Positions 2,096 to 55,630 of a stretch of DNA of 64,000 bases are shown here, piece by piece. The notes beneath the pieces were generated by a model. It worked only from the letters and a program-made list of their open reading frames with translations. It did not search any database and had not been told where the DNA came from. Positions within the stretch are counted from its first letter, which is position 1. Every line of letters starts with the position of its first letter. Location: contig JAFXEB010000002.1 in NCBI GenBank assembly GCA_017521025.1, positions 20,232 to 84,231 on the forward strand. Direction: 5' to 3'. The DNA is from Clostridia bacterium (GTDB taxonomy: Bacteria > Bacillota > Clostridia > Oscillospirales > CAG-382). Both the position numbers and the translations under genes were made by a program.

Positions 2096-2150
2096 TCATT
2101 TTTTGATTATTATTAAGGCGAATTTATAGACAAAGGGGACGTTTTACAGG

Positions 2151-7400: not shown

Positions 7401-9665
7401 AGTGGCGACCAAAAGCTTATAAAAAAGCTGAGAAGAGATATAAAAACAAAGGTGCTGTTGGTTGAGCTTGATTCTGCCGTGGAGTGTGAGCCCTCCGTCA
7501 CCTATTCACTCTCGGTCATACTGGGCGAGTTTATGAAAACTCTGTTCCCTCAGCAGTACAGGTGCGTATCCGTTTGTCCCATCTTTGACGAGGGCGTGGA
7601 GGAGCAATTCTTTGAGGGTAACACCGCCATACGTGACCTGTATCCTCGCATTGTAGACTCTTTTGGCAGGGGAGAGGGTGAGAACGATAAAAAACGCATT
7701 CGTTTTGCAGTTATAGAGGACATAGACGGCGGCAACGGTGTTGTTGAGACCCTCGTTGACGGTAACGGCATAATGGTCACAAACCTGCTGCATGTTGTTG
7801 CCGACTTCCTTGCTTGGATCAATTCTCCCGTAGGCCAGGGCTTCAGGTATCTGCACTTCGGCTACGATGCTTGCCCTGCTGTTTTCGATTTTGCCAAGCT
7901 TGACGAGATAGTCAAGCAGTTCCGTCAGGATGTAGAGCGTTCAGAGCTTGTCCGTATACATGACGATAACACTTGCTTCTTCTGTCATAAGCAGGTGGAG
8001 GACGAGGAGCTTCAGGAGCTTGAGGACGGAAGGGCGATATGCCGTTCCTGCTCGGAAAGCTCGGTTGGCACCTTCGAGGGATTGGAGGAGTGCTTCAAAG
8101 CGGTGTTTGATGCATTAAAGGCAAATACCTCTGTTCCGGAGACCTTCCCCTCTGAAATAAAGGCGGATTTCGTATCCACAAAGGAGCTGAGAGAGCGTTT
8201 CGGTGACGTTGAGGAAGTACTCCCCATAGCATATTGCAACCACCTGGACAACAGCATTTATTTGGAATACGGCTTGCCCAAGGCGGCTTTGTGCGGCGCT
8301 ATTGCCAGAATGATAACAGAGCTGTGGCAGGACAACAACGTATCCAATGACGGCTCTGCTATATACGGCGGTCATCTCGACCTTGTGGAGCTTCAGGCGC
8401 TTTTGTGGCTGAAATACGGCAACGAGGCTAATCTGCTTCGCAATTATTATCAGGGCAGAGAGGGGCTTGCAGCGCTTGAACAGGCACTTAAGGAGTTTGG
8501 CAGTCAGGATAGCTTTGCTTATTTCCTTGGCAAGTCAGGCATTAAAAACGGGGAGAAGCCCGGTGAGGATGAGGAGGACATACCCTTTATCGCAGAGCGT
8601 GACCCCAAGACTCTTCCCAGATTCCTGTACAGTCTGCTTTCCGAGGACGAAAAGGCGATCTATGACCAGATTTGCACTGCTGTATGTCAACATCAGGAAA
8701 GCACGGGCGAGCTTTGCAGACCTATAGTTGCTGAAAGATGCAGAGAGATACTCTATATGGTAAAATGGGATAATCCCCATATTATCTGGTGTGCTCATTC
8801 CTTTGGTACCGTTATGAGGAATAGCGAGAATATGGCGGTAAACGTTGTATTCAAGTATGTTCTTAGCCCGTCTGAGGCGCAAAAACGGGTAAAAAAGATC
8901 GAAAAATCCATAAAGCCGTTTCTCAAGGGTATCAAACCTTATATGAGCGATTACGAGGTTGCTTTGCGTGCTCATGAGAATATAGTAAGCCTTATAGATT
9001 ACGATTCGATAAGTCTTGATATACAGGACAATGACCCCGAGTTTGATAACAAGCCCGACAACCTGCGTTCTGTATATGGCGTTTTCGTAGAGAAAAAGGC
9101 TGTTTGCGCAGGCTATGCTGTGGCTTTCCAGTACCTGCTTCATCGCATGGGTATCGAGTGCGCTTACGTCAGAGGCCCGTGCCATGACGGTGAGTGGCAC
9201 GCCTGGAACCTTGTGAAGCTTGAGGGTGAGTACTACTACGTAGACGTAACCTTTGACGACCATACCAATACCGACATTAGGAAGAACGGCAGTGCAGAGA
9301 TATCCTATGACTATTTTGATATTACTACAGCCGAGCTTCTTAAATCGAGAAACATCCAAAACGCCGAGATCTATCCCGAGTGCAAGGCTGTTAAATGCAA
9401 CTATTTTGTGCGTAGCAATATGTTCTTCGAGGGCTATAATGCAAAGCAGGTTGCCAAGATAGTCAAAAACGCCTTGAAGGCGGGCAAAAAGGAGGTAGCT
9501 CTCAAGGCTGCTTCTCCCGAGGTTTTGGCCGTTATCAGGCGTAAGCTTATCAGCGAGGGAGGAATAAACGATATACTTTCCTCTCTGAATGAAAAGAAAA
9601 AATGCACTATATATAGTTATCTTAATGAGGAGCTGAATATATTGCACATTATTCTTGATAAATAG
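4452..9665 (+). CDS. Multidomain membrane protein: N-terminal TMs, degenerate SF2 (DEAD/DEAH, DUF1998-type) helicase, CxxC Zn finger, degenerate DA1-like domain, transglutaminase-like domain
   Basis: About 5 N-terminal TMs. Helicase-like motifs GKHVLFDTSLYSSLGE, RVLFIC, PDILLLTPDQF, VFVLDTD. DUF1998-like IEDIDGGNG. CFFC...CRSC. Intact triad CAGYA/HAWN/YVDVTFDD. Confidence 0.75.
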   Translation: MAWVLLKIIAIIAILLLMCLPFFPAKFSFSLASKSYDGKERWKNLWFVIETAIVSVFLVTFAPYIKNALEAFFNLGFMQWLKDLLPERFVYSIDVVVLIAVNLGICFLFLFFKKLLRIVLDRLIRTGGGSSNLGTGKNKGNQKQFSPNKKTGGKDVSDKRLRILRKNSVLVFGKGKKDVKGQTAKLGDYTAVKKDGEKQKTKKKKSNAVKSEESVSFASLFKYAYNKLVAVFYDEEDEFEYVKPGTYRWAKEMKSFMFLMSCLYLLVCLAVLLPVFFSFSWFPYFYTIAEWLIDNTYMYPMLSLVMLFEILWFIDGEYKYSEEVAAPYMTFVSGVNSDKEENLSESRNAFLNKYGQSYNIKNFESTAMGGKGTYTLEEKSRAIQNMAKAIRASKGFVNGDYMQGVEHMFDGKHVLFDTSLYSSLGEYIVHYLFVVMSFGTRVLFICKDKKEIENASAFLEKSFKEITKTDMVLWRISTYERLHEGETPDILLLTPDQFLERGLQSDGKSFFEELVDVFVLDTDKIITENNYYCLIMAKTLEKATTFFGEDRDFDADSSIAVEKRIRYRFLSSGHIQALDNSIRQFFNLEDARLETFHTFGLASKTEVFLWRTGMSSTMYVDNGANQVALEVQIAKEARSHGITHISLISDAAVYSSQLNEISGLTINCCDLSDNSTGYVIVADDCFNLPNAIYNFSRFSGRKSTVLHVVSKPYLLREYFASRAESYASHFELIGKTMSEHADVKKVNIINLLCDAVNGMERSLFIQRASEFLGDTPADNSEVIDKEPDEKELERFVQRCYDVAFGEGHDYEPRFTIKKEQSSQLEYKTFVYLVVPARLFKKLLESTRTVRLEYVNTQNSEYLSVFKDEMAQHFVPGQVMMRNNRCYTIKAMDKENGVLTLDDTGPSVNVPMDYIQTRHYEIKNAELDRSFGHHYRALNSVVNHVGYSIYDADVSVDTVGYYSIEKAVQTVDLVKPNFAKYVDLSGDQKLIKKLRRDIKTKVLLVELDSAVECEPSVTYSLSVILGEFMKTLFPQQYRCVSVCPIFDEGVEEQFFEGNTAIRDLYPRIVDSFGRGEGENDKKRIRFAVIEDIDGGNGVVETLVDGNGIMVTNLLHVVADFLAWINSPVGQGFRYLHFGYDACPAVFDFAKLDEIVKQFRQDVERSELVRIHDDNTCFFCHKQVEDEELQELEDGRAICRSCSESSVGTFEGLEECFKAVFDALKANTSVPETFPSEIKADFVSTKELRERFGDVEEVLPIAYCNHLDNSIYLEYGLPKAALCGAIARMITELWQDNNVSNDGSAIYGGHLDLVELQALLWLKYGNEANLLRNYYQGREGLAALEQALKEFGSQDSFAYFLGKSGIKNGEKPGEDEEDIPFIAERDPKTLPRFLYSLLSEDEKAIYDQICTAVCQHQESTGELCRPIVAERCREILYMVKWDNPHIIWCAHSFGTVMRNSENMAVNVVFKYVLSPSEAQKRVKKIEKSIKPFLKGIKPYMSDYEVALRAHENIVSLIDYDSISLDIQDNDPEFDNKPDNLRSVYGVFVEKKAVCAGYAVAFQYLLHRMGIECAYVRGPCHDGEWHAWNLVKLEGEYYYVDVTFDDHTNTDIRKNGSAEISYDYFDITTAELLKSRNIQNAEIYPECKAVKCNYFVRSNMFFEGYNAKQVAKIVKNALKAGKKEVALKAASPEVLAVIRRKLISEGGINDILSSLNEKKKCTIYSYLNEELNILHIILDK

Positions 9666-11006: not shown

Positions 11007-13571
11007 TTATCTTGCCAACGCCAGCTTTATAAGGATACAGTCGGCAGAATCGGTGGTGTTGTTGCCGTTCATATCTGCGGCGATGAAGTATGCGCCCGTA
11101 AAGCTCAGCGCTTTCTTGATAGAAGTAGTCAGCGCAAGATAATCGAGAGAGGAGATGTCTGCGTCACCGTTGATGTCACCCTGAAGAACGGCGATACAGC
11201 TCTCGTCCCCACAGCTTACAGTGTAGCCTGTGCCTACACTGTTGCCGTCCGCTACAGCGGTGCCGCTGTTGTCGGTTATGGTGACCTCGTATTTAAACAG
11301 CGTTTTAAGAGCGGTGCCCGTGGTGCCAACCGCAAAGCCGCTGAAATATTCGTTAAGGCTGTAGCTGCCGCTTGCCGCTGCGGCGTCGGTCAGCTCAAGC
11401 TTTGCCGCCGAGACCACAGTGAACGGGGCGCTCAGTACGGTATGAGTCTTGGGAGAGGAGCCGTTTATGGTCTGCATCTGCACCGTGTAGGTATAGCTGC
11501 CTATGGGCAGTGTTGAAATATTGATATCAGCGTTTGCAGCAGACAGGTCATAGCTTGTAGTGTATGGGCTTGAGGTATGAGTGGCGACCGCAGTGCCTGC
11601 CGAGTTCAGCACCGAAACGCTGACATTGTATAAACCTGTGTCGGTATTGAGGGTGCCGCCCAGCGTAAACGCCTCACCCACCGTGTGTTCGGTAGGATAT
11701 TTGCCGTTATCCACCTTCGCCCATGCGGCGTAGAAGGTGACAATATCCCTGTCAGTGGAGGAGGAGGCAGAAATAGAGCAGCCGTCTGTATAGGTCTTAA
11801 GGAAATAGCCGGTGGTGTCTGTACCGGGAGCCAGCCACTTGTCAGCGAGGGTAGAGGTATTCTTGTAGCACCAGGTGTTATCAGAGCGCCTGAAGGCTGT
11901 CCAGCCAACGAAGGTGTAGCCCTCACGGGTGAAGGCGTTGGAGGTAATGGCGGTGGATGTGCCGTATACTATCTTCTGCTGTGCCATGGTGCCCGTGCCG
12001 CCGTTGGCATCGTACTGGATGTAGTAGGATTTTGTGCCTGTGGAGTTGGGGGTCCACTGAGCATAGCAGGTTACGGTGTCGCCGTCTACCGAGGTAAGGG
12101 CGGATACAGAGCGCTTATCCTCGTAAAGGGCGAGCACTGCGGTAGCAGGCTGAGAGCCCTTGGTGTACCAAGTGGGATTGCCGCTCTCAGTGAAATAAAG
12201 CCACTTGCCGTCCGACTTGCGGGTGAGATACCAGCCTGCAAAGGTATAGCCGCTATAGGTGAAATAGTTGGGACGCAGGTTGGTGGATACGCCCTTTATA
12301 TGAATGGTACTGCTCATCTTATAGTTGCCCGAGCTGGAGTTGGTGCCGCTGTCGGTGCCGCCGTTTGCGTTGTACTTTACGGTATACACAACGGCACTGT
12401 CATCAACCATAGGAGTGAAATCGCCGGTGCCGCTCTTATAGCTCATGGAATATACGCCCTCAAAGCTTGCCACGGGAGAAGCGTTGGCGTTGATGTACAT
12501 CTTAAGGTCGCCTGTGGTGCCCTGACCCGTGCGGAAGCCCACAGACTCTATCTCCAGATCATTGCAGGAGGAGCTGGTGGCAGAGGCGGTCAGATAGAAG
12601 TTGGTCTTTGTGGGGTGAACAAGCGTGGTCTTGTTAGTGGAGAAATCCATCAATGCATCAGTGAGCACCTTGCTTACGTTATAGGTGAGTATTACGTTGG
12701 TGGTAATGGGGCTGGCGGGCTTGAACATGGGCACGTAGATGGTCTGCTCCAGAGAGTTGTAGTAAAAGCCCTGATTGACCCAAGTCTCCATATTGGCGTA
12801 GGTACCTGCAGAGGAGTTGCTCTTTGCAAATATAGCGTTCCTCTTGTCGATGGTGAAGATCTTGTAGCAGGTCACCTTGGTAGGGTTGGAGGCGGTGCCG
12901 CCGGTGGCAGTATCCGCTATCTTGCAGTAATAAAAGGTCTCGCCGTTCTTGAGTAGCAGGTAGAAATAGCCGCCCGAGTGCTTGTACTGACGCACGCTGG
13001 AGACGGTCATAGAGGTACCGCTTGTATTAACGGTATCAAAATATCCGGTGAAATACAGGTTTGTGCCCGATATCTTCATCCTCGACAAGGAGTTCCCCTT
13101 AATGCTCGTGGCAACCAGCATATAATTTACGTCATTTGCAGTTACTACCTGAAGGTCGTTTGCGTGACCGCAGGTGTCACAGCCGCTGGTAGAGGTAGCC
13201 GAGGTACTCGAATAGTAGTTCATATAGGAGACCGAGCCCGAGGAAATAGTAGTACGTGCTATGGAAACGTAGGTGTCACTGCTGTTGCGCTTGGCGGTGT
13301 AGATATAGGTGGTGCCTACGTTCATGCCCTGCATAGAGGTGCAGGAGGTACCGCCCACGGTCTTGTTTGCGTGGATGGAAAGAAGGCTTGCCTCGCCCAT
13401 AGTGTGGGTAACGTAGCCATTGTAGGAGTAGGCAGAGGGACTTACACCGCTATCCCCGATAACAGCCTTTACCGTCGCACCGAGATCTGCCTCCACGGCG
13501 GTAACGGCGAGGGCGGGGGACAGCATACACAGACAAAGAAGAAGTGATATCATGCTGAGTAGCTTTTTCAT
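11007..13571 (-). CDS. Secreted protein: probable beta-propeller domain, two InlB-B/Listeria-Bacteroides-type repeats, C-terminal type I dockerin
   Basis: Start MKKLLSMISLLL at 13571 after SD aaaggtg, with a signal peptide. Repeats Y(N/D)ANGGT...GYTF.GW. Dockerin GDINGDADISSLDY...ADMNGNNTTDSADC. Confidence 0.8.
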   Translation of the reverse strand: MKKLLSMISLLLCLCMLSPALAVTAVEADLGATVKAVIGDSGVSPSAYSYNGYVTHTMGEASLLSIHANKTVGGTSCTSMQGMNVGTTYIYTAKRNSSDTYVSIARTTISSGSVSYMNYYSSTSATSTSGCDTCGHANDLQVVTANDVNYMLVATSIKGNSLSRMKISGTNLYFTGYFDTVNTSGTSMTVSSVRQYKHSGGYFYLLLKNGETFYYCKIADTATGGTASNPTKVTCYKIFTIDKRNAIFAKSNSSAGTYANMETWVNQGFYYNSLEQTIYVPMFKPASPITTNVILTYNVSKVLTDALMDFSTNKTTLVHPTKTNFYLTASATSSSCNDLEIESVGFRTGQGTTGDLKMYINANASPVASFEGVYSMSYKSGTGDFTPMVDDSAVVYTVKYNANGGTDSGTNSSSGNYKMSSTIHIKGVSTNLRPNYFTYSGYTFAGWYLTRKSDGKWLYFTESGNPTWYTKGSQPATAVLALYEDKRSVSALTSVDGDTVTCYAQWTPNSTGTKSYYIQYDANGGTGTMAQQKIVYGTSTAITSNAFTREGYTFVGWTAFRRSDNTWCYKNTSTLADKWLAPGTDTTGYFLKTYTDGCSISASSSTDRDIVTFYAAWAKVDNGKYPTEHTVGEAFTLGGTLNTDTGLYNVSVSVLNSAGTAVATHTSSPYTTSYDLSAANADINISTLPIGSYTYTVQMQTINGSSPKTHTVLSAPFTVVSAAKLELTDAAAASGSYSLNEYFSGFAVGTTGTALKTLFKYEVTITDNSGTAVADGNSVGTGYTVSCGDESCIAVLQGDINGDADISSLDYLALTTSIKKALSFTGAYFIAADMNGNNTTDSADCILIKLALAR

Positions 13572-13629
13572 AATATACCGCACCTTTCTTGTATAAATAC
13601 ACATAATCATTGCCTATATTATATAATAA

Positions 13630-17267: not shown

Positions 17268-17296
17268 TTGTAAAATAAATAAAATAGGTATATAAT
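17268..17296 (+). promoter_or_regulatory. sigmaA promoter of the lic cluster
   Basis: TTGTAA-17 bp-TATAAT. Confidence 0.65.
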
Positions 17297-17396
17297 GTAA
17301 TTTATTAAATAACGAAAATATTTTTCCTGAGAGTATTTTTTTGTTGGTGCGCCATATATCTCGGGTGCGGTTTTATAAATGCAAAGGATGAGGCTT

Positions 17397-18266
17397 ATGT
17401 ACAAGGTAGATAATGCGGTAATAATGGCGGCAGGCGCCTCTTCACGCTTTGCCCCTCTCTCCTACGAGCTGCCCAAGGCGCTTATCACCGTAAAGGGTGA
17501 GGTGCTTATCGAGCGGCAGATAGCTCAGCTCAAGGCGGCGGGGATAGAGGATATTTACGTGGTGGTTGGCTATAAGGGCGATATGTTCTCGTACCTTGAG
17601 GAAAAGCTTGGGGTGCATATCGTCGAAAACCCCGACTATCTCACAAGAAACAACAATGCCAGCATCTATGCGGTGCGCCATATTCTGAAAAACACATATA
17701 TCTGCTCAGCAGACAACTATTTTTCCGAAAACCCCTTTGAGTCTCAGGTGGACGGCAGCTACTACGCCGCCGTTTATGCCGAGGGCGACACCAAGGAGTG
17801 GTGTATGGATTGCGATGAGGACGGGGTGATAAGCAGTGTGCGCATCGGCGGCAGAGACGCCTGGTATATGCTCGGTCACACCTTCTGGGATGAGGAGTTC
17901 AGCAAGGGCTTTCTCCGTATACTGGAGGCAGAGTATGACCGCCCCGAAACGGCGGACAAGCTGTGGGAGAGCATTTATATGGAGCATCTTGACAGCCTTA
18001 AGATGAAGATGCGCAGGTATGAGGACGGCGTTATTTTTGAGTTTGACACTCTGGATGAGCTTAGGGAGTTTGACGAGAGCTACCGTGAGGATACCCGTTC
18101 TGCCATTCTCAAGACTATAGCGGCAGAGCTTTCCTGTAAAGAGAGGGATATTACAGACCTTAAGGCATACAGGGGTGACAGTAACGATGCGGCAGGCTTT
18201 ACCTTTACCGCCTGCGGCAAGGGGTACCGTTACTCCTACAGCGACAGTAAGATAAAGGAGAACTGA
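17397..18266 (+). CDS. licC: CTP:phosphocholine cytidylyltransferase (LicC-like NTP transferase)
   Basis: NAVIMAAGASSRFAPLS...PKAL, RNN..SI, ICSADNY, EFDTLDELR; next to a choline kinase. Confidence 0.85.
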   Translation: MYKVDNAVIMAAGASSRFAPLSYELPKALITVKGEVLIERQIAQLKAAGIEDIYVVVGYKGDMFSYLEEKLGVHIVENPDYLTRNNNASIYAVRHILKNTYICSADNYFSENPFESQVDGSYYAAVYAEGDTKEWCMDCDEDGVISSVRIGGRDAWYMLGHTFWDEEFSKGFLRILEAEYDRPETADKLWESIYMEHLDSLKMKMRRYEDGVIFEFDTLDELREFDESYREDTRSAILKTIAAELSCKERDITDLKAYRGDSNDAAGFTFTACGKGYRYSYSDSKIKEN

Positions 18267-18269
18267 TTT

Positions 18270-19169
18270 ATGGCAAGAGAGATAATTAAGGAAGATATAC
18301 CTAAGATAAAAGCGTTGCTTGAGAAGGCACTTGGCGTTTCGGACTATGAGAGCCTTGCCCGTATGGGTGGACTCACCAACCACACCTACAGGGTGAGCCT
18401 TGCCGACGGCAGTGAGTATGCTTTGCGCCTCCCCGGTGAGGGCACTGAGGAGATGATCGTCCGTGGTGACGAGAAAAAGAGCACGGTGCTCGCCTGCGAC
18501 CTTGGCATAGATGCTGAGCTTTTGTATTTCGGCGATGACGGCTCCAAGGTGACAGCCTACATAAAGAACGCCGAGACCATGTCTGCCGACACCATAAAGG
18601 ACCCTCTTCGCATAAAGCAGGTGGCAGAAATTTATAAAAAGCTTCATTCCTGCGGTGTCGACACGGGCGTGCCCTTCGAGGTCTTCGATATGGCGGCAGG
18701 CTATAAGAAGATAATAGAGGACAAGAGCGTGCCTATGTTTGAAGATTACGACGGTATCGAGGCGGCTGTTATGGAGATAAAGGCGGAGACAGATGCCGCA
18801 GTATCACCCAAAAAGGTTCCCTGCCACAACGACCCTCTCTGTGAGAACTGGGTGGTTGGCGATGGGCGTATGTACCTTATAGATTGGGAGTACGCCGGTA
18901 TGAACGACGGTATGTGGGATCTGGCTGACATTTCTATAGAGGCGTGCTTTGACGGGGAGTGTGACAGGGCGCTTCTCACCGCATATCTGGGCAAGGAGCC
19001 TGATAAGGACGAGATGAAGCATTTCCTTGCCAGCAAGATATACGTGGATTATCTCTGGACCCTTTGGGCAAAGGCGAGGGTTCCCTATGACGGTCAGCCT
19101 ATGGAGGATTGGGCTGTGGAGCGTTATAACAGGCTTAAGGGCTTTATTGAAGAATACAGAAGCCTTTAG
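18270..19169 (+). CDS. licA: Choline/ethanolamine kinase (LicA-like)
   Basis: GGLTN, LRLPG, Brenner motif CHNDPLCEN, LIDWEYAG. Confidence 0.9.
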   Translation: MAREIIKEDIPKIKALLEKALGVSDYESLARMGGLTNHTYRVSLADGSEYALRLPGEGTEEMIVRGDEKKSTVLACDLGIDAELLYFGDDGSKVTAYIKNAETMSADTIKDPLRIKQVAEIYKKLHSCGVDTGVPFEVFDMAAGYKKIIEDKSVPMFEDYDGIEAAVMEIKAETDAAVSPKKVPCHNDPLCENWVVGDGRMYLIDWEYAGMNDGMWDLADISIEACFDGECDRALLTAYLGKEPDKDEMKHFLASKIYVDYLWTLWAKARVPYDGQPMEDWAVERYNRLKGFIEEYRSL

Positions 19170-19211
19170 ATAATTACCAAATAAAACTTTACCGAAAATG
19201 GAGGATCTACT

Positions 19212-20156
19212 ATGTTTTCAGGCGTATTAGCAGGCATAACCTGGGCGGTGGAAACCGTAGTTCTGGGCATAGCTCTGGCTATGAGTCCCTTCTGCTCTAC
19301 CGAGCAGGCTATCTTTCTTGCACCCTTTGTAAGCACCTTTTTGCACGATTTTTGCTCCGCACTGTGGGCAACCATATATAACGCCGTAAAGGGCAATACC
19401 AAAAACGTTTGGCGTGCTCTCAAGACCAAAAGCGGTAAATGGGTCGTTGCGGCGGCAGTCATCGGCGGTCCCGTGGGTATGACGGGCTATGTGCTTGCAG
19501 TTAACTATATGGGCGCATCCATAGGCGCTGTGGCAAGCGCTATTTTCCCCGCTATCGGCTCTATTCTCGCATACATCTTCCTTAAAGAGCGGATGAAGTG
19601 GTATCAGTGGATATTCCTTGTATTCACTTTGCTGGGTGTTTACGGCCTTAGCTATTCTCCCGACCTTAATATCGAAAACTTCTGGCTCGGTCTTTTGGGT
19701 GCGGCTATGTGCGCCTTTGGCTGGGGCATCGAGGCTGTTGTCCTTGCAAAATGCCTTACCGACCCCGAGGTTACCGATGAGTACGCTCTGCAGATACGTC
19801 AGACCACCTCTGCCATCGTTTACGGCGCAATCATACTGCCCGTGCTCGGCGGCTGGGGCTTTACCGTTGACCTGTTCACCGCAGGTACAGGCTGGCTCCT
19901 CCCCACCATCGCTATAGCGGGTCTCTTTGCTACCGTGTCCTATCTCTTCTATTACAAGGCAATAGCAAAGATAGGCGCATCCAAGGCTATGGCGCTCAAC
20001 GTTACATACTGCGCTTGGGCTATCCTCTTTACGGTGCTCATTTTGGGCGACACCTCCGTGCTTACTCCCACTACTATTATCTGTGCTATCGTGGTTCTGG
20101 TTTGCGGTATCTTTGCGGCGGCAGACTTTAAGGAGATACTCGGTAAAAAGAAATAG
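19212..20156 (+). CDS. licB: DMT/EamA-family transporter, LicB-like choline permease
   Basis: About 10 TMs, GGPVGMTGY motif, position after licCA. Confidence 0.8.
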   Translation: MFSGVLAGITWAVETVVLGIALAMSPFCSTEQAIFLAPFVSTFLHDFCSALWATIYNAVKGNTKNVWRALKTKSGKWVVAAAVIGGPVGMTGYVLAVNYMGASIGAVASAIFPAIGSILAYIFLKERMKWYQWIFLVFTLLGVYGLSYSPDLNIENFWLGLLGAAMCAFGWGIEAVVLAKCLTDPEVTDEYALQIRQTTSAIVYGAIILPVLGGWGFTVDLFTAGTGWLLPTIAIAGLFATVSYLFYYKAIAKIGASKAMALNVTYCAWAILFTVLILGDTSVLTPTTIICAIVVLVCGIFAAADFKEILGKKK

Positions 20157-20167
20157 TCGCCTTGCTA

Positions 20168-20196
20168 TTGCGTAAAGGCTGATATTGTGCTATGAT
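20168..20196 (+). promoter_or_regulatory. Possible internal sigmaA promoter before the CPBP/TagF/YidC-fusion genes
   Basis: TTGCGT-17 bp-TATGAT with extended TG; hairpin aggcggcg...cgccgcct downstream. Confidence 0.45.
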
Positions 20197-20272
20197 TGAT
20201 AGGCGGCGTCCTTACATTAAGGTGCGCCGCCTTACGGATTTTAAAATAAAGGCTGAGAAACGGTATCCTTAT

Positions 20273-20932
20273 ATGATATTCTTTTTCATTATACTGTACG
20301 GTCTGCTGCTCGGTGCAGGCGACTTGCTTGCCCATCTGTCACCTATAGTCCCTCTGCTCACCGCCCTTGGGGTGCTGGTGTATTGCCGCCTTATGCTTGC
20401 GTGGGTAAAGCGCAGCGGTCAGGGTGCAGAGATAGGGCTCGTCCTACCTGATATAAAGGGTGCGGGAGACTGCGCTTTGCTTTTGCCGTTGCTGCTCTTG
20501 CCCGTGCTTAACGTTTTCCTTTTCGGGCTTACGTTGCCCACCCTTTCCTCGGTGCTCCTTATGTTTGGCGTTTCCGTGGCAGAGGAGGTGTTTTTCCGTG
20601 GTTTTCTTCTCCGTTTTCTCGGCTCTCTTGGCAGATACGGTGCGCCCCTTATGGCATCGTTCTTTTTCGGACTTTTCCATTTCATAAACCTTGCGGGCGG
20701 TGCCGACCCCGTATATACCGTGCTGCAGGCGTTCTGTGCCTTCGGGACAGGGCTCGCCTTTTGCGGTGTCAGACGCAGGTTAAAGAGCCTTGTGCCCTCC
20801 ATCGCCGCTCATTTTCTGATAAACCTTACAGGCGCCGCTTCTTCGGTATCTGCGGCGGTATCCGGTTCCTTGCTTATCTGCGGCGGCATTATGGCGGTCT
20901 ACGGACTGTGGCTCTGCGGTGAAAAACAGTAA
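20273..20932 (+). CDS. CPBP (Abi/CAAX) family intramembrane metalloprotease
   Basis: EEVFFRG, FGLFH, AAHFLIN. Start moved to 20273 because ATG 20192 overlaps the -10 box. Confidence 0.85.
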   Translation: MIFFFIILYGLLLGAGDLLAHLSPIVPLLTALGVLVYCRLMLAWVKRSGQGAEIGLVLPDIKGAGDCALLLPLLLLPVLNVFLFGLTLPTLSSVLLMFGVSVAEEVFFRGFLLRFLGSLGRYGAPLMASFFFGLFHFINLAGGADPVYTVLQAFCAFGTGLAFCGVRRRLKSLVPSIAAHFLINLTGAASSVSAAVSGSLLICGGIMAVYGLWLCGEKQ

Positions 20933-20947
20933 AACAGGAGTGTTTTT

Positions 20948-22183
20948 ATGAAGCTTTATATCGACCCCGGTACGGGGAGTATGCTCTTTACCATTCTCAT
21001 AGGCGTTCTCGGCGCCGCCTTCTATTCTCTGCGTATGCTTTTCGTCAAGCTAAAGTTCAAGATAAGCGGCGGTAAGGCAAAGGCTATGGATACCACCATC
21101 CCCTTCGCCGTGTTCTCGGATGACAAGCGTTATTTCAAGATCTTTGAGCCCGTACTGCGTGAGCTTGGTCGCAGGGGTAAGGAGGTCGTGTATATGACCG
21201 CCTCCGAGGATGACCCCGCCTTCCGCTGTGATATCCCCGGCGTGAGGGCAGAGTTCATAGGTAAGGGCAACAAGGCGTTTTCAAAGCTGAATTTCCTTAA
21301 CGCTACCGTGCTGCTCTCCACCACCCCCGGTCTTGACGTTTATCAGTGGAAACGCTCCAAGGGCGTTAAGTATTACGTTCACATACCCCACGCCGCCAGC
21401 GAGATAGTGCTTTACAGGATGTTCGGCATCGACTATTACGATGCGGTGCTCCTCTCCGGCGATTATCAGGAGAAGGATATCAGAGACCTTGAGGTGATGC
21501 GCAAGCTTCCTGAAAAGGAGCTTTACAAGATAGGCATCCCCTATATGGATGAGATGGCGGCAAGGCTTGAGCGTGAGGGCACAGGGGCAGCGCACCCTCT
21601 TACCGTGCTTCTTGCTCCCTCCTGGGGCAGCAGTGCCATATTCAGCGTTTACGGCGGCAGGATACTTGATGTACTGCTAAAAACGGGCTACCACGTTATA
21701 GTCCGCCCCCATCCTCAGTCCTTCGCTTCCGAGACCGAGCTTATTGAGGGGCTTATGAAAAAATATCCCCCCTCCGAAAAGCTTGAGTGGAACAGAGATA
21801 CCGATAATTTTGACGTGCTTCGCCGCTCAGACATACTTATATCCGACTTTTCGGGCGTTATCTTTGATTTTGCCCTGATATATGACAAGCCTATAATCTA
21901 TACCGACCCCCGTTTTGACCTCGGTCCTTACGATGCGTGGTGGCTTGACAGACCCCTTTGGACTGCCTCCGCCCTGCCCAGATTGGGTATGCAGCTTACG
22001 GAGGAGAATATGGAGGGACTCGGCGAGCTTGTTGACCGCTGTCTCAGCGACCCACGCTACAGCGAGGGCAGGCGTCAGGTTAAGGATGAAACATGGGCAT
22101 ACTTCGGCGAGGGAGCCGCAAGAGCGGCTGATTACCTCATAAATAAGTATGACGAGCTTCAAAAGGTGAAAGAGGAAAAGTGA
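20948..22183 (+). CDS. CDP-glycerol glycerophosphotransferase (TagF/TagB) family protein with N-terminal TM
   Basis: HIPHA, LLAPSWG, RPHPQ, ILISDFSGVIFDF; N-terminal YIDPGTGS plus TM; SD aggag. Confidence 0.85.
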   Translation: MKLYIDPGTGSMLFTILIGVLGAAFYSLRMLFVKLKFKISGGKAKAMDTTIPFAVFSDDKRYFKIFEPVLRELGRRGKEVVYMTASEDDPAFRCDIPGVRAEFIGKGNKAFSKLNFLNATVLLSTTPGLDVYQWKRSKGVKYYVHIPHAASEIVLYRMFGIDYYDAVLLSGDYQEKDIRDLEVMRKLPEKELYKIGIPYMDEMAARLEREGTGAAHPLTVLLAPSWGSSAIFSVYGGRILDVLLKTGYHVIVRPHPQSFASETELIEGLMKKYPPSEKLEWNRDTDNFDVLRRSDILISDFSGVIFDFALIYDKPIIYTDPRFDLGPYDAWWLDRPLWTASALPRLGMQLTEENMEGLGELVDRCLSDPRYSEGRRQVKDETWAYFGEGAARAADYLINKYDELQKVKEEK

Positions 22184-22184
22184 T

Positions 22185-24995
22185 ATGTCGTTTTTTGAGA
22201 TCCTTGGTAACGTGCTCATAGGACCGTTAAAGCTGGTTTTTGAGCTTATATACGGTGCCGCATATAGGTTTGTTGACCATCCCGGCATCGCTATCATATT
22301 TTTAAGCCTTGTTATGAACATCCTTGTATTGCCTCTTTACAGGCGTGCTGACGCTATGCAGGAGGAGGCGAGGGATACCGAGGCGAGACTGCGCCCCGGT
22401 GTAGAGCATATCAAAAAGACCTTCTCCGGTGACGAGCGCATGATGATAATGCAGGCGTACTACCGTCAGGAGGGCTATAAGCCCACCAGTGGTCTTAAAG
22501 GCTCTGTGTCCCTGCTGCTTGAGATACCCTTCTTTATGGCGGCGTATCAGTTTTTGTCAAGCCTCAGTATATTGAACGGCGTGCCCTTCGGCCCTATCGC
22601 CGATCTGGGCAAGCCTGACGGCCTTTTGGTTATCGGCTCTCTCAGCATAAACCTTTTGCCCGTGCTGATGACCCTTATCAACTGCGTGTCCAGCTATCTG
22701 TATCTGAAGGGCTTTCCCCTTAAGACAAAGATACAGCTTTACGCTATGGCGTTGTTTTTCCTTGTGTTCCTTTATACGTCTCCCTCGGCGCTTGTATTTT
22801 ACTGGACGCTGAACAATCTGTTCTCCCTTGTAAAGACCATATTCTATAAGCTTAAAAACCCTATGGCGGTCATCCGTATAATTACCTCTGTGGCAGGTCT
22901 TGCGCTGATCGCCTACGGTGCGCTGTCGGATATAGGTATCAACAACAGCATAATTATTATGGCGATAGGTCTGGGACTTGAGATTCCTCTTCTCGGCCGT
23001 ATCCTCGACAAGAAAAACGAAGGCAAAGCGGAGGCAGACAGTGAAAAGCAGACCGAAAAGGCAAAGGCGGTAAAGGCATCTTCAAAGCCTGATAAAAAGC
23101 TGTTTGTGCTTGGCTCTCTTTTCCTGACCCTGCTTGTAGGCGTGCTTATACCCTCGGCGTATATCGCCGCATCTCCACAGGAGTTTGTGGATATGGGTTA
23201 TTACCACAACCCTCTCTGGTACGTGGTCAGCGCCCTCTGCCTTGCCGCAGGTACCTTTATGGTCTGGGTAAGGGTGTTCTATTGGCTGGCAAGCGATAGT
23301 GCAAAGCGTGTGTTTGAAAAGCTTGTCTGGGTGCTTTGCGGCGTTGCCTTCATAAACTATATGTTTTTCGGCACAGGTCTTGGCGTTATCTCCTCTACTC
23401 TGAAGTATGAGGAGGGTATGCACTTTTCCGTGTCCGAGCAGGTGCTCAACGCTGTTGCGGTGATAGCTCTTGCGGCAGTGATGCTTCTGGTCATCTCTAA
23501 GTGGAGGCGTGTTGTGTCCTCGGTGCTTGCCCTTGCCATAGTCGCCTCTGTAGGTATGTCTGTATGGAATGTAGTGGGCATCAAGAGCGACGTGGACGAG
23601 ATACACCTTGGCTCTGACTCCTCCTCGGGTGCGCCTTTATATACCCTCAGCGAGGACGGCAAAAACGTAGTGGTCATAATGCTCGACCGTGCTATGGGTG
23701 AGTACGTGCCCTTTATGTTTGCCGAAAAACCCGAGCTTGCCGATATGTTCGCAGGCTTTACCTATTACGATAACGTGGTTTCCTTCGGCGGCTTCACAAA
23801 TATGGGCGTACCTGCTCTCCTCGGCGGCTACGAGTATACGCCCGTTGAAATGAATAAGAGGGCAGAGGAGGCGTTGGTCTCCAAGCATAACGAGGCGCTT
23901 AAGGTCATGCCCACGCTCTTTGCCGACAGTGGCTATGACGTTACGGTTTGTGACCCCACCTACGCCAACTATAAGTGGATACCCGACCTTTCAATATTCG
24001 ATGACAACCCCGATATAAAGACCTATATCACCAAGGGCAAGTTCGGCGACCCCGAGCAGAAAAAGGCTGTTGTCTCCAACAACCGCCGCAACTTTTTCCT
24101 GTTCAGCCTTATGAAATCCCTGCCCCTGATGCTACAGCGCTCTATGTATAACGGCGGCAGGTATAACCAGTTGGTGTATGAAGACGGCGTTGTCAGCTAT
24201 GGCACTCAGGCTCTTGAGAGCACCTCCAAGGCGCAGGGGATGTCTGTCAGCTTTATGGACCCCTATAACGTGCTGGCGAGTATGTCCTATATAACCGATA
24301 CCACCAAGGGCAAGGGCAGCTTTATCTTCCTTTCCAACGATGCCTGCCACGAGCCGATGCTTTTGCAGACCCCCGATTACGTGCCTGCCGAGAAGGTGGA
24401 TAACACCGTGTACGAGGCAGAGCGTGGCGGCAGCGTGAAGCTTGGTGACAGAGAGCTGCTTGTGGATACCGACGTGCGTATGATACACTATCACGCTAAT
24501 ATGGCGTCCTTCCTTCAGCTTGGCAAGTGGTTCGATACTCTGCGTGAAAAGGGCGTTTACGATAATACAAGGATAATTCTCGTGTCTGACCACGGCAGAT
24601 ACCTGGGGCAGACCAAGGAGCTTGTTATGGATAACGGCTCTGACAAATACAAGAACGCATCTATGTATTTCCCCCTGCTTATGGTCAAGGATTTCGACAG
24701 CAAGACCTTTACCACCTCCCACGAGTTTATGACCAACGCAGACGTGCCTACCCTTGCTACCGCAGGGCTTATCGATTCCCCCGTGAACCCCTTTACGGGC
24801 AAGGCGATAAACAGCAGTGAAAAAACTGCCCACGAGCAGTTTATTTCCCTCTCGGGTCAGTGGGACGTTAAGATAAATAACGGCAACACCTTTATGGAGG
24901 GTAAATGGGCAAGCGTGAAGGACGATATCTGGGTAAAGGATAACTGGACCTTCTATAGCGGCAAGACCGTGCTTGACGAGCATAAGGCACCCTAA
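22185..24995 (+). CDS. Fusion of a YidC/Oxa1-like domain, extra TMs and a C-terminal LtaS/sulfatase-like (alkaline phosphatase superfamily) domain
   Basis: YidC-like GIAIIFLSLVMNILVLPL, LLEIPFF, PSALVFYWTLNNLFS. C-terminal NVVVIMLD, GFTN, CHEP, ILVSDHG, NADVPT. Confidence 0.82.
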   Translation: MSFFEILGNVLIGPLKLVFELIYGAAYRFVDHPGIAIIFLSLVMNILVLPLYRRADAMQEEARDTEARLRPGVEHIKKTFSGDERMMIMQAYYRQEGYKPTSGLKGSVSLLLEIPFFMAAYQFLSSLSILNGVPFGPIADLGKPDGLLVIGSLSINLLPVLMTLINCVSSYLYLKGFPLKTKIQLYAMALFFLVFLYTSPSALVFYWTLNNLFSLVKTIFYKLKNPMAVIRIITSVAGLALIAYGALSDIGINNSIIIMAIGLGLEIPLLGRILDKKNEGKAEADSEKQTEKAKAVKASSKPDKKLFVLGSLFLTLLVGVLIPSAYIAASPQEFVDMGYYHNPLWYVVSALCLAAGTFMVWVRVFYWLASDSAKRVFEKLVWVLCGVAFINYMFFGTGLGVISSTLKYEEGMHFSVSEQVLNAVAVIALAAVMLLVISKWRRVVSSVLALAIVASVGMSVWNVVGIKSDVDEIHLGSDSSSGAPLYTLSEDGKNVVVIMLDRAMGEYVPFMFAEKPELADMFAGFTYYDNVVSFGGFTNMGVPALLGGYEYTPVEMNKRAEEALVSKHNEALKVMPTLFADSGYDVTVCDPTYANYKWIPDLSIFDDNPDIKTYITKGKFGDPEQKKAVVSNNRRNFFLFSLMKSLPLMLQRSMYNGGRYNQLVYEDGVVSYGTQALESTSKAQGMSVSFMDPYNVLASMSYITDTTKGKGSFIFLSNDACHEPMLLQTPDYVPAEKVDNTVYEAERGGSVKLGDRELLVDTDVRMIHYHANMASFLQLGKWFDTLREKGVYDNTRIILVSDHGRYLGQTKELVMDNGSDKYKNASMYFPLLMVKDFDSKTFTTSHEFMTNADVPTLATAGLIDSPVNPFTGKAINSSEKTAHEQFISLSGQWDVKINNGNTFMEGKWASVKDDIWVKDNWTFYSGKTVLDEHKAP

Positions 24996-25017: not shown

Positions 25018-25047
25018 AGGGCAGAGAAGCGGTTTCTCTGCCCTTTA
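25018..25047. terminator. Terminator between convergent genes
   Basis: agggcagagaa-gcggt-ttctctgccct. Confidence 0.7.
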
Positions 25048-27780: not shown

Positions 27781-27842
27781 GGGCGTATATCACAGCTTAT
27801 TAAAACAAAAAATACATTTTGATTAAAGAAAGGAAAAAAGTT

Positions 27843-29273
27843 ATGGGACTTATTAAAGCAGGAATAGGCGCATTGGGCGGCGTAATGGCTGACCAGTGGA
27901 AGGAGTTTTTCTATTGTGATGCACTGAGCACTGACGTGCTTGTAAAGAAGGGGCAGAAGCGCACCAGTGACCGTTCCTCCAACACCAAGGGCGAGGATAA
28001 CATAATTTCCAACGGCTCGGGTATTGCCGTAGCCGACGGTCAGTGTATGATCATAGTAGAGCAGGGAAAGGTAGTAGAGGTATGTGCCGAGCCCGGCGAG
28101 TTTACATATGACACCTCTACAGAGCCTTCTATATTTGCAGGCAGCCTCGGCCAGAGCATACTTAACACCTTCAAGGCAATCGGTAAGCGTTTCACCTATG
28201 GCGGCGACACGGGCAAGGACCAGAGGGTGTACTATTTCAACACCAAGGAGATAATGGGCAACAAGTTCGGCACTAAGAACCCCATTATGTTCGAGGTAGT
28301 CAACAAGCGTCTCGGTATGAGCAGAACCGTACAGGTAAGATGTAACGGTATCTACTCCTACGTGATAAGCAACCCCCTTCTTTTCTATACCAAGGTCTGC
28401 GGTAACGTAGAGAACGAGTATAGAAGGGACCAGATAGACGAGCAGCTTAAGACCGAGTTTATAAGCGCACTTCAGCCTGCCCTGGGTGCTCTTACCGAGC
28501 TTGAGCTTCGCCCCGCACAGATACCCGCTAAGGTAAACGAGCTTAAGGCGGCAATGAACGAAGCGCTGAGAGCAGAGTGGATAGACAGCCGTGGTATAAC
28601 TGTAGAGAAGATAGCCATCAACCCCATCACCCTCACCGAGGAGGATATGAAGAAGATCAACCAGATGGAAGATGCGGCAACAATGGGCAGCAATCCTTTC
28701 ATGATGGCAGGCAGAATGACCGATGCTACCGCAAACGCTATGGAGGCCGCCGCTGCTAACGAGGCCGGCGCTATGACAGGCTTTATGGGCCTTGGTATGG
28801 CAGGCGGCGCAATGGGTGGCGGCTTTAACGCAGCACAGAGTCTGTATGGCGCAGGCGTTCAGGCGCAGGCAGCACAGGCACAGGCGCAGGCTGCACAGGC
28901 TGCACAGGCTCCTGCGGCAGAGGGCTGGAAATGTGCCTGCGGCGCAACTGCGACGGGCAAATTCTGTACCGAGTGCGGCGCAAAGAAGCCTGAGCCTGTA
29001 GCGGCAGGGGGCTGGAAGTGCGCTTGCGGCGCAACCGCAACGGGTAAGTTCTGCACCGAGTGCGGCGCAAAGAAGCCTGAGGCAGATGGCTGGACCTGCT
29101 CCTGCGGTGCGGTAAACAAGGGCAAGTTCTGTCCTAACTGCGGTGCCAAGAAGCCTGCAGGTGTACCTCAGTACAAGTGCGATAATTGCGGCTGGGAGCC
29201 TGAAAAGGGCGTGACCCCTCCCAAGTTCTGCCCTGAGTGCGGTGACCCCTTTGATGACGGCGATATAATCTAA
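27843..29273 (+). CDS. SPFH/band-7 domain protein with C-terminal zinc-ribbon repeats (YdjI-like)
   Basis: MGLIKAG...ADQWKEFF start after aaagga; SPFH core; three GWxCxCG...KFCxxCG repeats plus CDNC/CPEC. Confidence 0.88.
   Translation: MGLIKAGIGALGGVMADQWKEFFYCDALSTDVLVKKGQKRTSDRSSNTKGEDNIISNGSGIAVADGQCMIIVEQGKVVEVCAEPGEFTYDTSTEPSIFAGSLGQSILNTFKAIGKRFTYGGDTGKDQRVYYFNTKEIMGNKFGTKNPIMFEVVNKRLGMSRTVQVRCNGIYSYVISNPLLFYTKVCGNVENEYRRDQIDEQLKTEFISALQPALGALTELELRPAQIPAKVNELKAAMNEALRAEWIDSRGITVEKIAINPITLTEEDMKKINQMEDAATMGSNPFMMAGRMTDATANAMEAAAANEAGAMTGFMGLGMAGGAMGGGFNAAQSLYGAGVQAQAAQAQAQAAQAAQAPAAEGWKCACGATATGKFCTECGAKKPEPVAAGGWKCACGATATGKFCTECGAKKPEADGWTCSCGAVNKGKFCPNCGAKKPAGVPQYKCDNCGWEPEKGVTPPKFCPECGDPFDDGDII
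28921..29160 (+). repeat. Intragenic tandem repeat encoding zinc ribbons
   Basis: GWKCACGATATGKFCTECGAKKPE twice (87-nt spacing) plus a diverged third copy. Confidence 0.85.
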
Positions 29274-38919: not shown

Positions 38920-39015
38920 GCAGTGATACAGTATTGATTTGAGGAAAAACCTATGCTATAATCAAGTAAAATAAAACAGCAAAATATGATCCATTTTGGG
39001 AAAGGAACGGCTTTT

Positions 39016-55138: not shown

Positions 55139-55628
55139 AGGGCTGAAGATCAGGTGGGTAAACCTGCGTGTCAATAAACATCTTGCCGGTACTAAAGAAA
55201 AGCATTTTGAAAAGAAAAGGCGTCTTCTTAACTCCATAGGTCACGATATAGGCGAGGGCACAAAAATAGTAGGCCCCGTTTATTGCACGGGTAAGCTTGT
55301 AGTGGGAAAAAGCTGTTGGATAGGCAGAAACCTTACCGTTAACGGAAACGGTACGGTAACCATAGGCGATAACTGCGATATTGCCCCTGACGTGGCATTT
55401 CAAACCGGCTCCCACGAAATAGGCGCTCCCGAAAGAAGGGCAGGCAAAGGTTATACAAAGGACGTTTCTGTTGGTAACGGCTGTTGGTTAGGGGCGCACA
55501 GCGTTGTGTTGGGCGGAGTGACCGTGGGAAACGGTTGTGTTGTAGCCGCTTGTGCCTGTGTTGTAAGGGACGTGGCGGAGAACACGCTTGTGGGTGGCGT
55601 GCCTGCGAAAGAAATAAGAAAGATCTGA
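55128..55628 (+). CDS. Hexapeptide-repeat O-acetyltransferase
   Basis: IGDNCDIAPDV, TGSHEIG, VGNGCWLG, VGGVPAK. Confidence 0.9.
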   Translation: MTFRGLKIRWVNLRVNKHLAGTKEKHFEKKRRLLNSIGHDIGEGTKIVGPVYCTGKLVVGKSCWIGRNLTVNGNGTVTIGDNCDIAPDVAFQTGSHEIGAPERRAGKGYTKDVSVGNGCWLGAHSVVLGGVTVGNGCVVAACACVVRDVAENTLVGGVPAKEIRKI

Positions 55629-55630
55629 CT

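Follow-up and report, generated by a model that had tools for sequence, protein, structure and literature searches.

We analyzed a 64,000-nucleotide (nt) stretch of DNA, hereafter the window, from a Clostridia bacterium (Oscillospirales; CAG-382; assembly GCA_017521025.1, contig JAFXEB010000002.1, positions 20,232-84,231 of the forward strand), focusing on a gene that encodes a YidC-like module fused to a domain of the alkaline phosphatase (AP) superfamily. This fusion gene is the last of six that occupy positions 17379-24995 on the same strand, separated by gaps of 1-42 nt, in the order licC, licA, licB, CPBP-family protease, TagF-like transferase, and fusion (Table 1). The gene begins 1 nt after its upstream neighbor stops, behind a ribosome-binding site of the AGAGGA type, and a hairpin located shortly beyond its end likely marks the end of the operon.

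The lic homologues in the operon, together with a natural fusion of a TagF-like enzyme to a choline kinase (described below), strengthened the connection to choline that a first-pass annotation of the same DNA had drawn. That annotation had also remarked that the gene does not sit in the rnpA/jag setting, and this setting was indeed not present around the fusion gene, where the upstream genes were instead those listed above. No member of the LicD family was found among the 41 open reading frames (ORFs) scanned, which represent part of those in the window, or among 94 flanking ORFs of 16 related loci. Rfam and tRNA scans of the window returned no matches.

Table 1. Features of the operon and of the fusion gene, with window positions (aa, amino acids; TM, transmembrane).
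Feature	Position	Strand	Basis
Sigma-70-like promoter candidate upstream of licC	17268..17296	+	Consensus scan, 10/12 hexamer matches; pattern match only
licC-like CTP:phosphocholine cytidylyltransferase	17379..18266	+	Pfam NTP_transf_3; phmmer to S. pneumoniae LicC 1jyk, E 2.3e-39
licA-like choline kinase	18270..19169	+	Pfam Choline_kinase, E 2.8e-18; phmmer to LicA 4r77, E 3.9e-38, and 3dxq, E 1.8e-44
licB-like choline permease (EamA/DMT)	19212..20156	+	Pfam EamA; phmmer to LicB 7b0k, E 1.2e-32
CPBP / Rce1-like intramembrane protease	20192..20932	+	Pfam Rce1-like, E 6.5e-17
TagF-like CDP-alcohol phosphotransferase, 411 aa, with N-terminal TM anchor	20948..22183	+	Pfam Glyphos_transf, AlphaFold2, Foldseek
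Fusion gene	22185..24995	+	936-aa ORF, YidC-like module and AP-superfamily domain
YidC-fold module, aa 1-222, five TM helices and cytoplasmic helical hairpin	22185..22850	+	Pfam, NCBIfam, PDB alignments, AlphaFold2, Foldseek
Asn45 codon, AAC	22317..22319	+	Opposite E. coli YidC Arg366 and the groove Arg of B. halodurans YidC2
Glu113 codon, GAG	22521..22523	+	Opposite E. coli YidC Gln429
Linker, aa 226-300, two extra TM helices and Lys-rich cytoplasmic helix	22860..23084	+	Hydropathy, AlphaFold2
Five-TM domain, aa 304-480, ahead of the catalytic domain (cf. LtaS, EptA and PbgA)	23094..23624	+	AlphaFold2, hydropathy, Foldseek
Extracytoplasmic AP-superfamily domain, aa 486-928 (predicted)	23640..24968	+	Pfam Sulfatase, conservation, Foldseek
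Key codons of the AP domain: D501; T538; H722; D802/H803	23685-7; 23796-8; 24348-50; 24588-93	+	Direct codon check
Hairpin with 11-bp stem, between the fusion gene and a convergent GNAT gene	25018..25044		Terminator-like scan; minus-strand call, T tail

Architecture and extent of the fusion family

Pfam placed a YidC-family domain (60KD_IMP, PF02096) at aa 34-221 of the fusion protein (E 1e-24; 87.8 bits against a cut-off of 35) and a Sulfatase domain (PF00884) at aa 493-855 (E 1.5e-11; 44.6 bits against a cut-off of 25), bearing out the domain pairing proposed in the first-pass annotation. The generic YidC core model of NCBIfam, TIGR03592, was barely above its cut-off (84.6 vs 84.3), and all of the YidC equivalog models were far under theirs (e.g., 67.7 bits vs 891). 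An AlphaFold2 model built on an alignment of 75 relatives, which had been suggested as a guide to topology, was confident (mean predicted local distance difference test score, pLDDT, 92.3; predicted template modelling score, pTM, 0.89), and describes a membrane enzyme with 12 TM helices in three parts: the YidC-fold module, a linker, and a five-TM segment followed by an AP domain on the outside (aa 304-936). In the model, a pair of short N-terminal helices precedes the YidC core, the helices of which (33-79, 82-95, 100-125, 157-173, 179-196, and 201-221) reproduce the five-TM core and cytoplasmic hairpin of the YidC fold. The linker comprises two TM helices (226-247 and 252-265) and a long, Lys-rich helix (267-299), with pLDDT falling to 58-62 around aa 280-300 and ten Lys and Arg residues within aa 275-305, after which come the C-terminal TM helices (304-329, 344-368, 371-394, 416-439, and 441-480) and an alpha/beta domain (486-928).

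Whole-length relatives were numerous, with 3961 of 8000 scored candidates matching the entire fusion protein. Among the matches listed (120), lengths were 879-943 aa, all contained PF02096, and most also contained PF00884. A search of representatives of clusters at 50% identity yielded 7680 matches at E<=0.001, of which 1468 reached E<=1e-30, and lengths of 850-1010 aa were found in 144 of the best 150 representatives. The fusion is a large family, and is not the product of chance or an assembly artefact. Where the source databases gave a name, its members were called 'YidC/Oxa1 family membrane protein insertase' or 'hypothetical', and came from Clostridia, Oscillospiraceae, and Ruminococcaceae metagenome-assembled genomes (MAGs). 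ESM Atlas clusters of the same architecture, which we treat as leads only, had Bacillota, Spirochaetota or Pseudomonadota as their commonest phylum. A search for unfused relatives of the YidC-like module did not reach canonical YidC, the 120 matches listed being mostly fusion-family fragments on short contigs, and a tblastn search of plasmids found no match.

In two MAG contigs the fusion gene was broken (L013, 10001-12756, and L018, 9968-12651), with 19 and 11 stops, respectively, upon straight translation and with separate 60KD_IMP and Sulfatase ORFs, and the cause may be frameshifting, pseudogene formation or faulty assembly; the label of L013, Eggerthellaceae, is that of a family outside of the Bacillota. 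No description of a YidC-sulfatase or YidC-LtaS fusion was found in full-text searches of the literature, which covered main texts, and a term search of the text of PMC6697681 and PMC2706819 found no mention of the fusion.

The groove and the catalytic domain

Residue equivalences were taken from HMMER alignments to solved YidC chains and counted by the printed chain numbering. The alignment was free of gaps in the segment around the conserved groove arginine, where, as the first-pass annotation had read by comparison with the E. coli protein, the fusion carries an asparagine (Asn45), and the conserved glutamine of the LIQxP motif was likewise found to be a glutamate (Glu113), both being verified at the level of the codon. 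Further equivalences to E. coli YidC were Ser41 to Thr362, Tyr206 to Tyr516, Trp207 to Tyr517, Asn210 to Ser520, and Asn211 to Asn521. The groove arginine is described in PMC8920935 as strictly conserved in all YidC homologues. In the fusion family it was lost in every sequence aligned, the column at this position in 150 cluster representatives being composed of Asn (130), Ser (10), Gln (5), Cys (2), and gaps (3), such that neither Arg nor Lys occurred in any of 148 aligned sequences (147 representatives and the query), and the charge conserved across YidC/Oxa1/Alb3 was absent. Homologues that retain the arginine, which would have spoken against a repurposed groove, were therefore not encountered, and the position was Asn in 120 of 120 close relatives as well as in 120 of 120 short fragments. 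The groove charge has not simply relocated, because no column of the five-TM core exceeded 20% Lys or Arg apart from those at boundary positions 105, 122, 182, and 217.

Position 113 was Glu in 119 of 120 close relatives, and translation of 17 related loci gave Glu in each. As a mark of a clean choline-specific clade Glu113 was rejected, given approximately 27 switches between Glu and Gln on a FastTree reconstruction of 151 sequences, in which the largest clade purely of the Glu113 type had six members. Asp or Glu was present at position 181 in 47 of the 88 members of the Gln113 type, and the notion that an acid is always present at either 113 or 181 was also discarded, being true of only 105 of the 151. 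The polar groove residues conserved in the family were S41, N45, Q/E113, Y206, W207, N210, and N211; Pro50, Pro115, and Tyr206 of the YidC family were kept; and in the cytoplasmic hairpin, positions A55, D56, Q59, I76, F80, G82, E84, Y93, and Y98 were each retained in at least 90% of sequences.

The N-terminal part is therefore best called a YidC-fold module and not a YidC, since it has the profile and fold of the family and lacks its conserved charge. Trp207, in combination with the missing arginine, reproduces the Trp-without-Arg pairing that inactivates S. mutans YidC2, an insertase with a native Trp at the Y517 position that is inactive once its Arg is removed (PMC8920935). Nevertheless, loss of the arginine alone does not prove repurposing. 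Purified E. coli YidC and other Oxa1-family proteins are reported in PMC11047089 to scramble phospholipids in vitro.

For the C-terminal half, the first-pass annotation had recognized a set of residues typical of the AP superfamily, and these proved to be conserved across 75-145 relatives: D501, H722, D802, and H803 were invariant, and T538 was invariant or nearly so. In the AlphaFold2 model D501 follows a strand (494-500), T538 opens a helix (538-547), and D802/H803 follow a strand (795-800). The formylglycine motif, Cys/Ser-x-Pro/Ala-x-Arg ([CS]x[PA]xR), occurred nowhere in the 936 aa, which favors a phosphotransferase that relies on Thr over a sulfatase that relies on formylglycine; the sulfatase reading was accordingly rejected, with a conserved Thr at the place in question. 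Foldseek searches against the PDB returned 187 matches at E<=0.001 and, among those listed, all belonged to the AP superfamily except E. coli YidC (6al2_A; 229 columns, root-mean-square deviation 4.8, 24% identity). PbgA was matched at full length (6xlp; E 1.7e-7, 716 columns), as were MCR-1 (9nww; 657 columns) and, over 650 columns, EptA (5fgn), alongside the ectodomains of LtaS and LtaP and many S1 sulfatases, at identities of 11-16% to the AP-superfamily matches.

The spread of Lys and Arg over the loops follows the positive-inside pattern, and fits a cytoplasmic hairpin and linker with the catalytic domain on the outside. Further, in a natural triple fusion (P0396) the AP domain ends within ~15 residues of the YIDPGTGS motif and single TM helix of the TagF-like part, and because only that one helix separates them, the AP and nucleotide-using TagF domains must lie on opposite sides of the membrane. 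The AP domain is thus predicted to be extracytoplasmic, with the topology of P0396 as independent support; loop charges, the structural model, and this fusion agree in placing it outside, as the first-pass reading had presupposed, and not in the cytoplasm.

The TagF-like partner, related loci and the wider window

The gene that directly precedes the fusion gene encodes a protein in which Glyphos_transf (PF04464) scored 37.2 bits against a cut-off of 22.1. By sequence, nothing significant was found for it in the PDB, and the assignment to the TagF fold comes from its AlphaFold2 model (pLDDT 83.3), for which the top Foldseek match was TagF (3l7i; E 2e-13, TM-score 0.60), followed by Cps3D, TarL, and Bcs3. 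The N-terminus consists of an 11-residue N-tail and one TM helix with a positive C-flank. Within it, YIDPGTGSMLF (residues 4-14; window 20948-20990), which comes before the TM helix, was invariant in 17 sequences. Every longer fusion form retained this motif, even where the YidC module was missing, and the triple fusion places it on the outer face of the membrane.

We compared 19 related loci (L001-L019) from species-representative genomes within the flanks fetched. The TagF-like gene adjoined the fusion gene in 16 of the 19, the exceptions being two contigs of ~4 kb and L018. Lic genes were present in the flanks of nine: licA, licB, and licC together in L002, L004, L006, L007, L008, and L010, licA and licB in L012, and a fused licCA in L009 and L013. 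A CPBP gene was adjacent in L006, L007, L009, L010, L014, and L015, making it a recurrent third partner. In L007 we also observed a 1797-aa protein on the minus strand (714-6104) in which a TIR domain is joined to SecA domains of the DEAD-like and P-loop types.

Natural fusions were uncovered when the TagF-like protein was compared with longer proteins (29 matches at E<=0.001 among 8000 candidates). Those of the P0396 type consist of the YidC module, the AP module, and the TagF-like enzyme in that order, and were represented by five variants of full length (1283-1322 aa) recovered from assemblies in NCBI, Logan, and ENA; P0396 itself was 41% identical to the fusion protein over residues 1-922 and 52% identical to its TagF-like neighbor, and carries Gln at position 113 along with Asn in place of the groove Arg. 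P0395, represented by one sequence of 1024 aa, comprises a TagF-like part followed by the five-TM and AP segment, and has no YidC module (hhalign probability 97.2, E 3.8e-11), and P0397 (723 aa, nine sequences on separate contigs) a TagF-like part followed by a choline kinase. Long TagF-like proteins of the P0400 type did not match the family profile significantly by hhalign (E 0.044). Together, these natural fusions place the TagF-like and AP-type enzymes in a single pathway with choline metabolism.

Elsewhere in the window, a polysaccharide biosynthesis cluster on the plus strand (40751-61614) encodes a DegT aminotransferase, a Bac_transf initiating transferase, a PglD-like acetyltransferase, several GT1/GT4 glycosyltransferases, a Wzx-type flippase (55484-56908), and epimerases, and could supply an acceptor polymer for a surface decoration. 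Inside of it lies a gene (44485-49119, plus strand) for a 1545-aa protein with an NAGPA phosphodiester-glycosidase domain and BspA-type leucine-rich repeats. Two dockerin-bearing proteins (11007-13610, minus strand, and 38986-40569, plus strand), one with Listeria-Bacteroides repeats and one a GDSL lipase, suggest a host among fibre-degrading Clostridia of the cellulosome type. An SPFH/Band-7 protein (27819-29273, plus strand) carries several near-identical Cys-rich repeats of the zinc-ribbon type in its C-terminal third. Finally, three consecutive large ORFs (687, 766, and 1737 aa) occupy 32-9665 on the plus strand, of which the first two had no Pfam match and the third only a transglutaminase core near its C-terminus.

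A proposed relay, its rivals and known systems

Taken together, these observations partly support the first-pass interpretation of the fusion, and the TagF-like partner and natural fusions sharpen it. We consider it probable that the fusion protein is an extracytoplasmic phospho-alcohol transferase that works with the TagF-like enzyme in surface decoration. The strongest evidence comes from the conserved TagF-like partner, the licD gene that was not found, and the fusions of Rosetta-stone type. In the relay that we propose, LicB would import choline, LicA would phosphorylate it, and LicC would yield CDP-choline, as strong homology indicates. The membrane-anchored TagF-like enzyme may then move phosphocholine from CDP-choline to a lipid hydroxyl at the cytoplasmic face, the simplest acceptor being diacylglycerol, in which case a small amount of phosphatidylcholine would form and serve as carrier. 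Through the groove of the YidC-like module, which is hydrophilic and uncharged to acidic, the head group would pass to the outer leaflet, where, by analogy with LtaS, GacH, and EptA, the AP domain may take phosphocholine onto Thr538 and transfer it to an extracellular glycopolymer, freeing the lipid for re-use. Indirect support for the crossing step comes from the in vitro lipid scrambling by YidC and other Oxa1-family proteins, from the polar groove retained throughout the family, and from the Trp-without-Arg pairing that inactivates S. mutans YidC2 as an insertase. The full relay, as a LicD-independent lipid route for surface phosphocholine, is plausible, albeit at somewhat less than an even chance. 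The more specific idea that an Oxa1-superfamily insertase fold has evolved into a dedicated lipid head-group conduit between a CDP-choline-using TagF-like enzyme and an LtaS/EptA-type enzyme, with a recycling carrier akin to diacylglycerol/phosphatidylcholine, we put forward as speculative and, in that form, unlikely.

Several of our own results weigh against the relay or parts thereof. The shift from a basic to an acidic groove, proposed in the first-pass annotation as suited to the cationic choline head group, held for this protein and its close relatives; across the 150 representatives of the wider family, position 113 was Gln in 88 and Glu in 58. Hence the loss of Arg extends to the whole family, mostly with Asn in its place, whereas Glu113 is fixed only among close relatives, and the idea of an acidic groove for choline is weakened. 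With respect to the arginine itself, E. coli YidC functions without it if residue 517 is hydrophilic or aromatic, according to PMC8920935. The equation of T538 with the nucleophile of LtaS and EptA is likely and draws on conservation and predicted secondary-structure placement, the residue-level alignment to solved enzymes covering the DH region. By sequence profile, LtaS matched the AP domain at E 0.018, and the best sequence match was a choline sulfatase (E 1.4e-5 over ~45 residues); with the low identities to the structural matches, 'LtaS-like' is therefore a statement at the level of architecture and superfamily, where the earlier label holds, and not at that of sequence. Ten of the 19 related loci had no lic genes in the fetched flanks, and in two of the nine that do have them (L007, 6167-8076, and L010, 5934-7828) the CPBP/TagF-like/fusion module was directly preceded by genes for a PHP-domain protein and an ethanolamine permease, EutH, so that the alcohol could be ethanolamine or another in some lineages. 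Lastly, the ESM Atlas contains unfused relatives of the C-terminal half (596-709 aa; leads only), which, together with P0395, imply that the chemistry can proceed without the YidC module.

Other explanations differ mainly in the role that they give the YidC-fold module. It could still be a dedicated insertase or chaperone that inserts the fused polytopic transferase, or the N-out anchor of the TagF-like partner, and that transports no lipid, which we hold to be unlikely. The module retains the full YidC core, including the cytoplasmic hairpin and hydrophilic groove, and proteins with a short N-tail and single TM helix are classical YidC-only substrates, a form that the TagF-like enzyme shares, its N-terminus lying outside according to the triple fusion. 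Moreover, not only E. coli YidC but an engineered S. mutans YidC can work without Arg when the groove remains hydrophilic (described in PMC8920935), although the fusion has the very combination, Trp at the Y517 position and no Arg, that is inactive in S. mutans YidC2. The N-terminal motif of the TagF-like enzyme is, furthermore, the same in fusions without a YidC module (P0395, P0400-P0420), and the job is normally that of a housekeeping YidC. We know of no precedent for an N-terminal module that inserts the downstream helices of its own protein. Alternatively, the fold may be a static membrane scaffold that ties both enzymes together and moves nothing, its groove permanently holding a TM helix (e.g., the TagF-like anchor) or a lipid substrate. 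Conservation of the gene pair at 16 of 19 loci, fusions in both orders, the invariant motif and highly conserved hairpin would all fit such a scaffold, and the whole-chain pTM suggests a fixed arrangement of domains; retention of the motif where no YidC module is fused, and conserved polar groove residues that a scaffold leaves unexplained, make it quite improbable in our estimation.

The two enzymes might also act separately, with the TagF-like protein replacing LicD on a lipid-linked glycan and the AP domain adding glycerol phosphate or phosphoethanolamine from bulk phospholipid, the YidC module being incidental. TagF-family enzymes work on cytoplasmic lipid-linked acceptors, a Wzx-type polysaccharide cluster lies 16 kb downstream, and the loci lacking lic genes in their flanks would be accommodated. 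Characterized members of the five-TM and AP architecture, as described in 10.1101/337519 and PMC10434233, draw on bulk phosphatidylglycerol or phosphatidylethanolamine. Yet the covalent fusion of TagF-like and AP modules in two arrangements points to one coupled pathway, and a YidC-AP fusion kept in at least 144 of the best 150 representatives, as well as in the Atlas phyla (leads), is hard to call incidental; we judge separate action to have only a small chance of being correct. Much less credible still is a hydrolase, whether a sulfatase or a phosphodiesterase that trims teichoic acid or phosphocholine. Many S1 sulfatases, along with choline sulfatase and phosphonate monoester hydrolases, do rank among the best matches by sequence and by Foldseek, but the protein has no formylglycine motif, its conserved candidate nucleophile is Thr, its five-TM anchor is typical of lipid-using transferases, and its partner, fused or separate, is a CDP-alcohol transferase of biosynthetic function.

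Should the relay be correct in its form with a dedicated lipid conduit, it would constitute the missing LicD-independent phosphocholine route of many gut Clostridia and, by the Atlas leads, of some Spirochaetota and Pseudomonadota. The TagF-like and YidC-AP pair is a concrete candidate for the missing transferase step in gut Clostridia, which bear licABC and produce polysaccharide that carries phosphocholine and is immunologically active. The large natural family without Arg (1468 representatives at E<=1e-30; none of the 150 examined with Arg or Lys) offers a ready-made test of groove charge, and a YidC fold joined to an enzyme that uses lipids, with a CDP-alcohol transferase as partner, renders the in-cell relevance of insertase scrambling directly testable. 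If the module instead turns out to be an insertase, whether ordinary or dedicated, little more than a curious fusion of domains is left.

Compared with YidC/Oxa1/Alb3 proteins (E. coli YidC, B. halodurans YidC2, and S. mutans YidC2), the fusion has the same five-TM core, cytoplasmic hairpin, and polar groove. Unlike these insertases it has no free C-terminal tail, bears seven more TM helices and an enzyme domain, and lies outside of the rnpA/jag context, and in every relative examined the groove Arg is replaced by Asn, Ser, Gln or Cys. With LtaS, EptA/MCR-1, and PbgA it shares five TM helices followed by an outward-facing AP-fold domain, a DH metal-ligand pair, and a Thr that is here the putative nucleophile, at Foldseek E values of 1.7e-7 to 9e-6, yet identity is just 11-14%, and the YidC module is an addition. 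The closest working analogue is GacH/SccH, the glycerol-phosphate transferase of streptococcal rhamnose polysaccharides and a many-TM, outward-facing, Thr-dependent decorator of wall polysaccharide. GacH is described in 10.1101/337519 as having eleven predicted TM helices and an extracellular AP-superfamily domain with a Thr nucleophile, and as decorating the wall polysaccharide from a lipid donor. GacH was not among the Foldseek matches listed, and no sequence match to it was seen. To our knowledge its N-terminal part is not YidC-like, and it uses bulk phosphatidylglycerol without TagF-like or lic partners, both of which the fusion has.

Homologues of licA, licB, and licC are likewise found together in the Lic-1 pathway, as they are here in one operon. 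Unlike Lic-1, enzymes of the TagF and AP folds occupy the place of licD, which was not found in the ORFs scanned. The text of PMC10434233 gives no known coexistence of Lic-1 with AP-superfamily phosphocholine transferases, and a gut Clostridium makes a phosphocholine-bearing exopolysaccharide that depends on licABC, in a report (10.1101/2024.06.12.598703) the text of which does not contain the term licD.

A last comparison is with three-component extracytoplasmic glycosylation. In CsbB/GtcA/YfhO and ArnC/ArnEF/ArnT, sugars on undecaprenyl phosphate are handled by small flippases of the GtrA or SMR type and by GT-C transferases. In the present case a phospho-alcohol would be moved, and none of the three folds is the same, while the logic of the proposed relay would be the same, that is, cytoplasmic activation, loading onto a lipid, flipping, and transfer on the outside.

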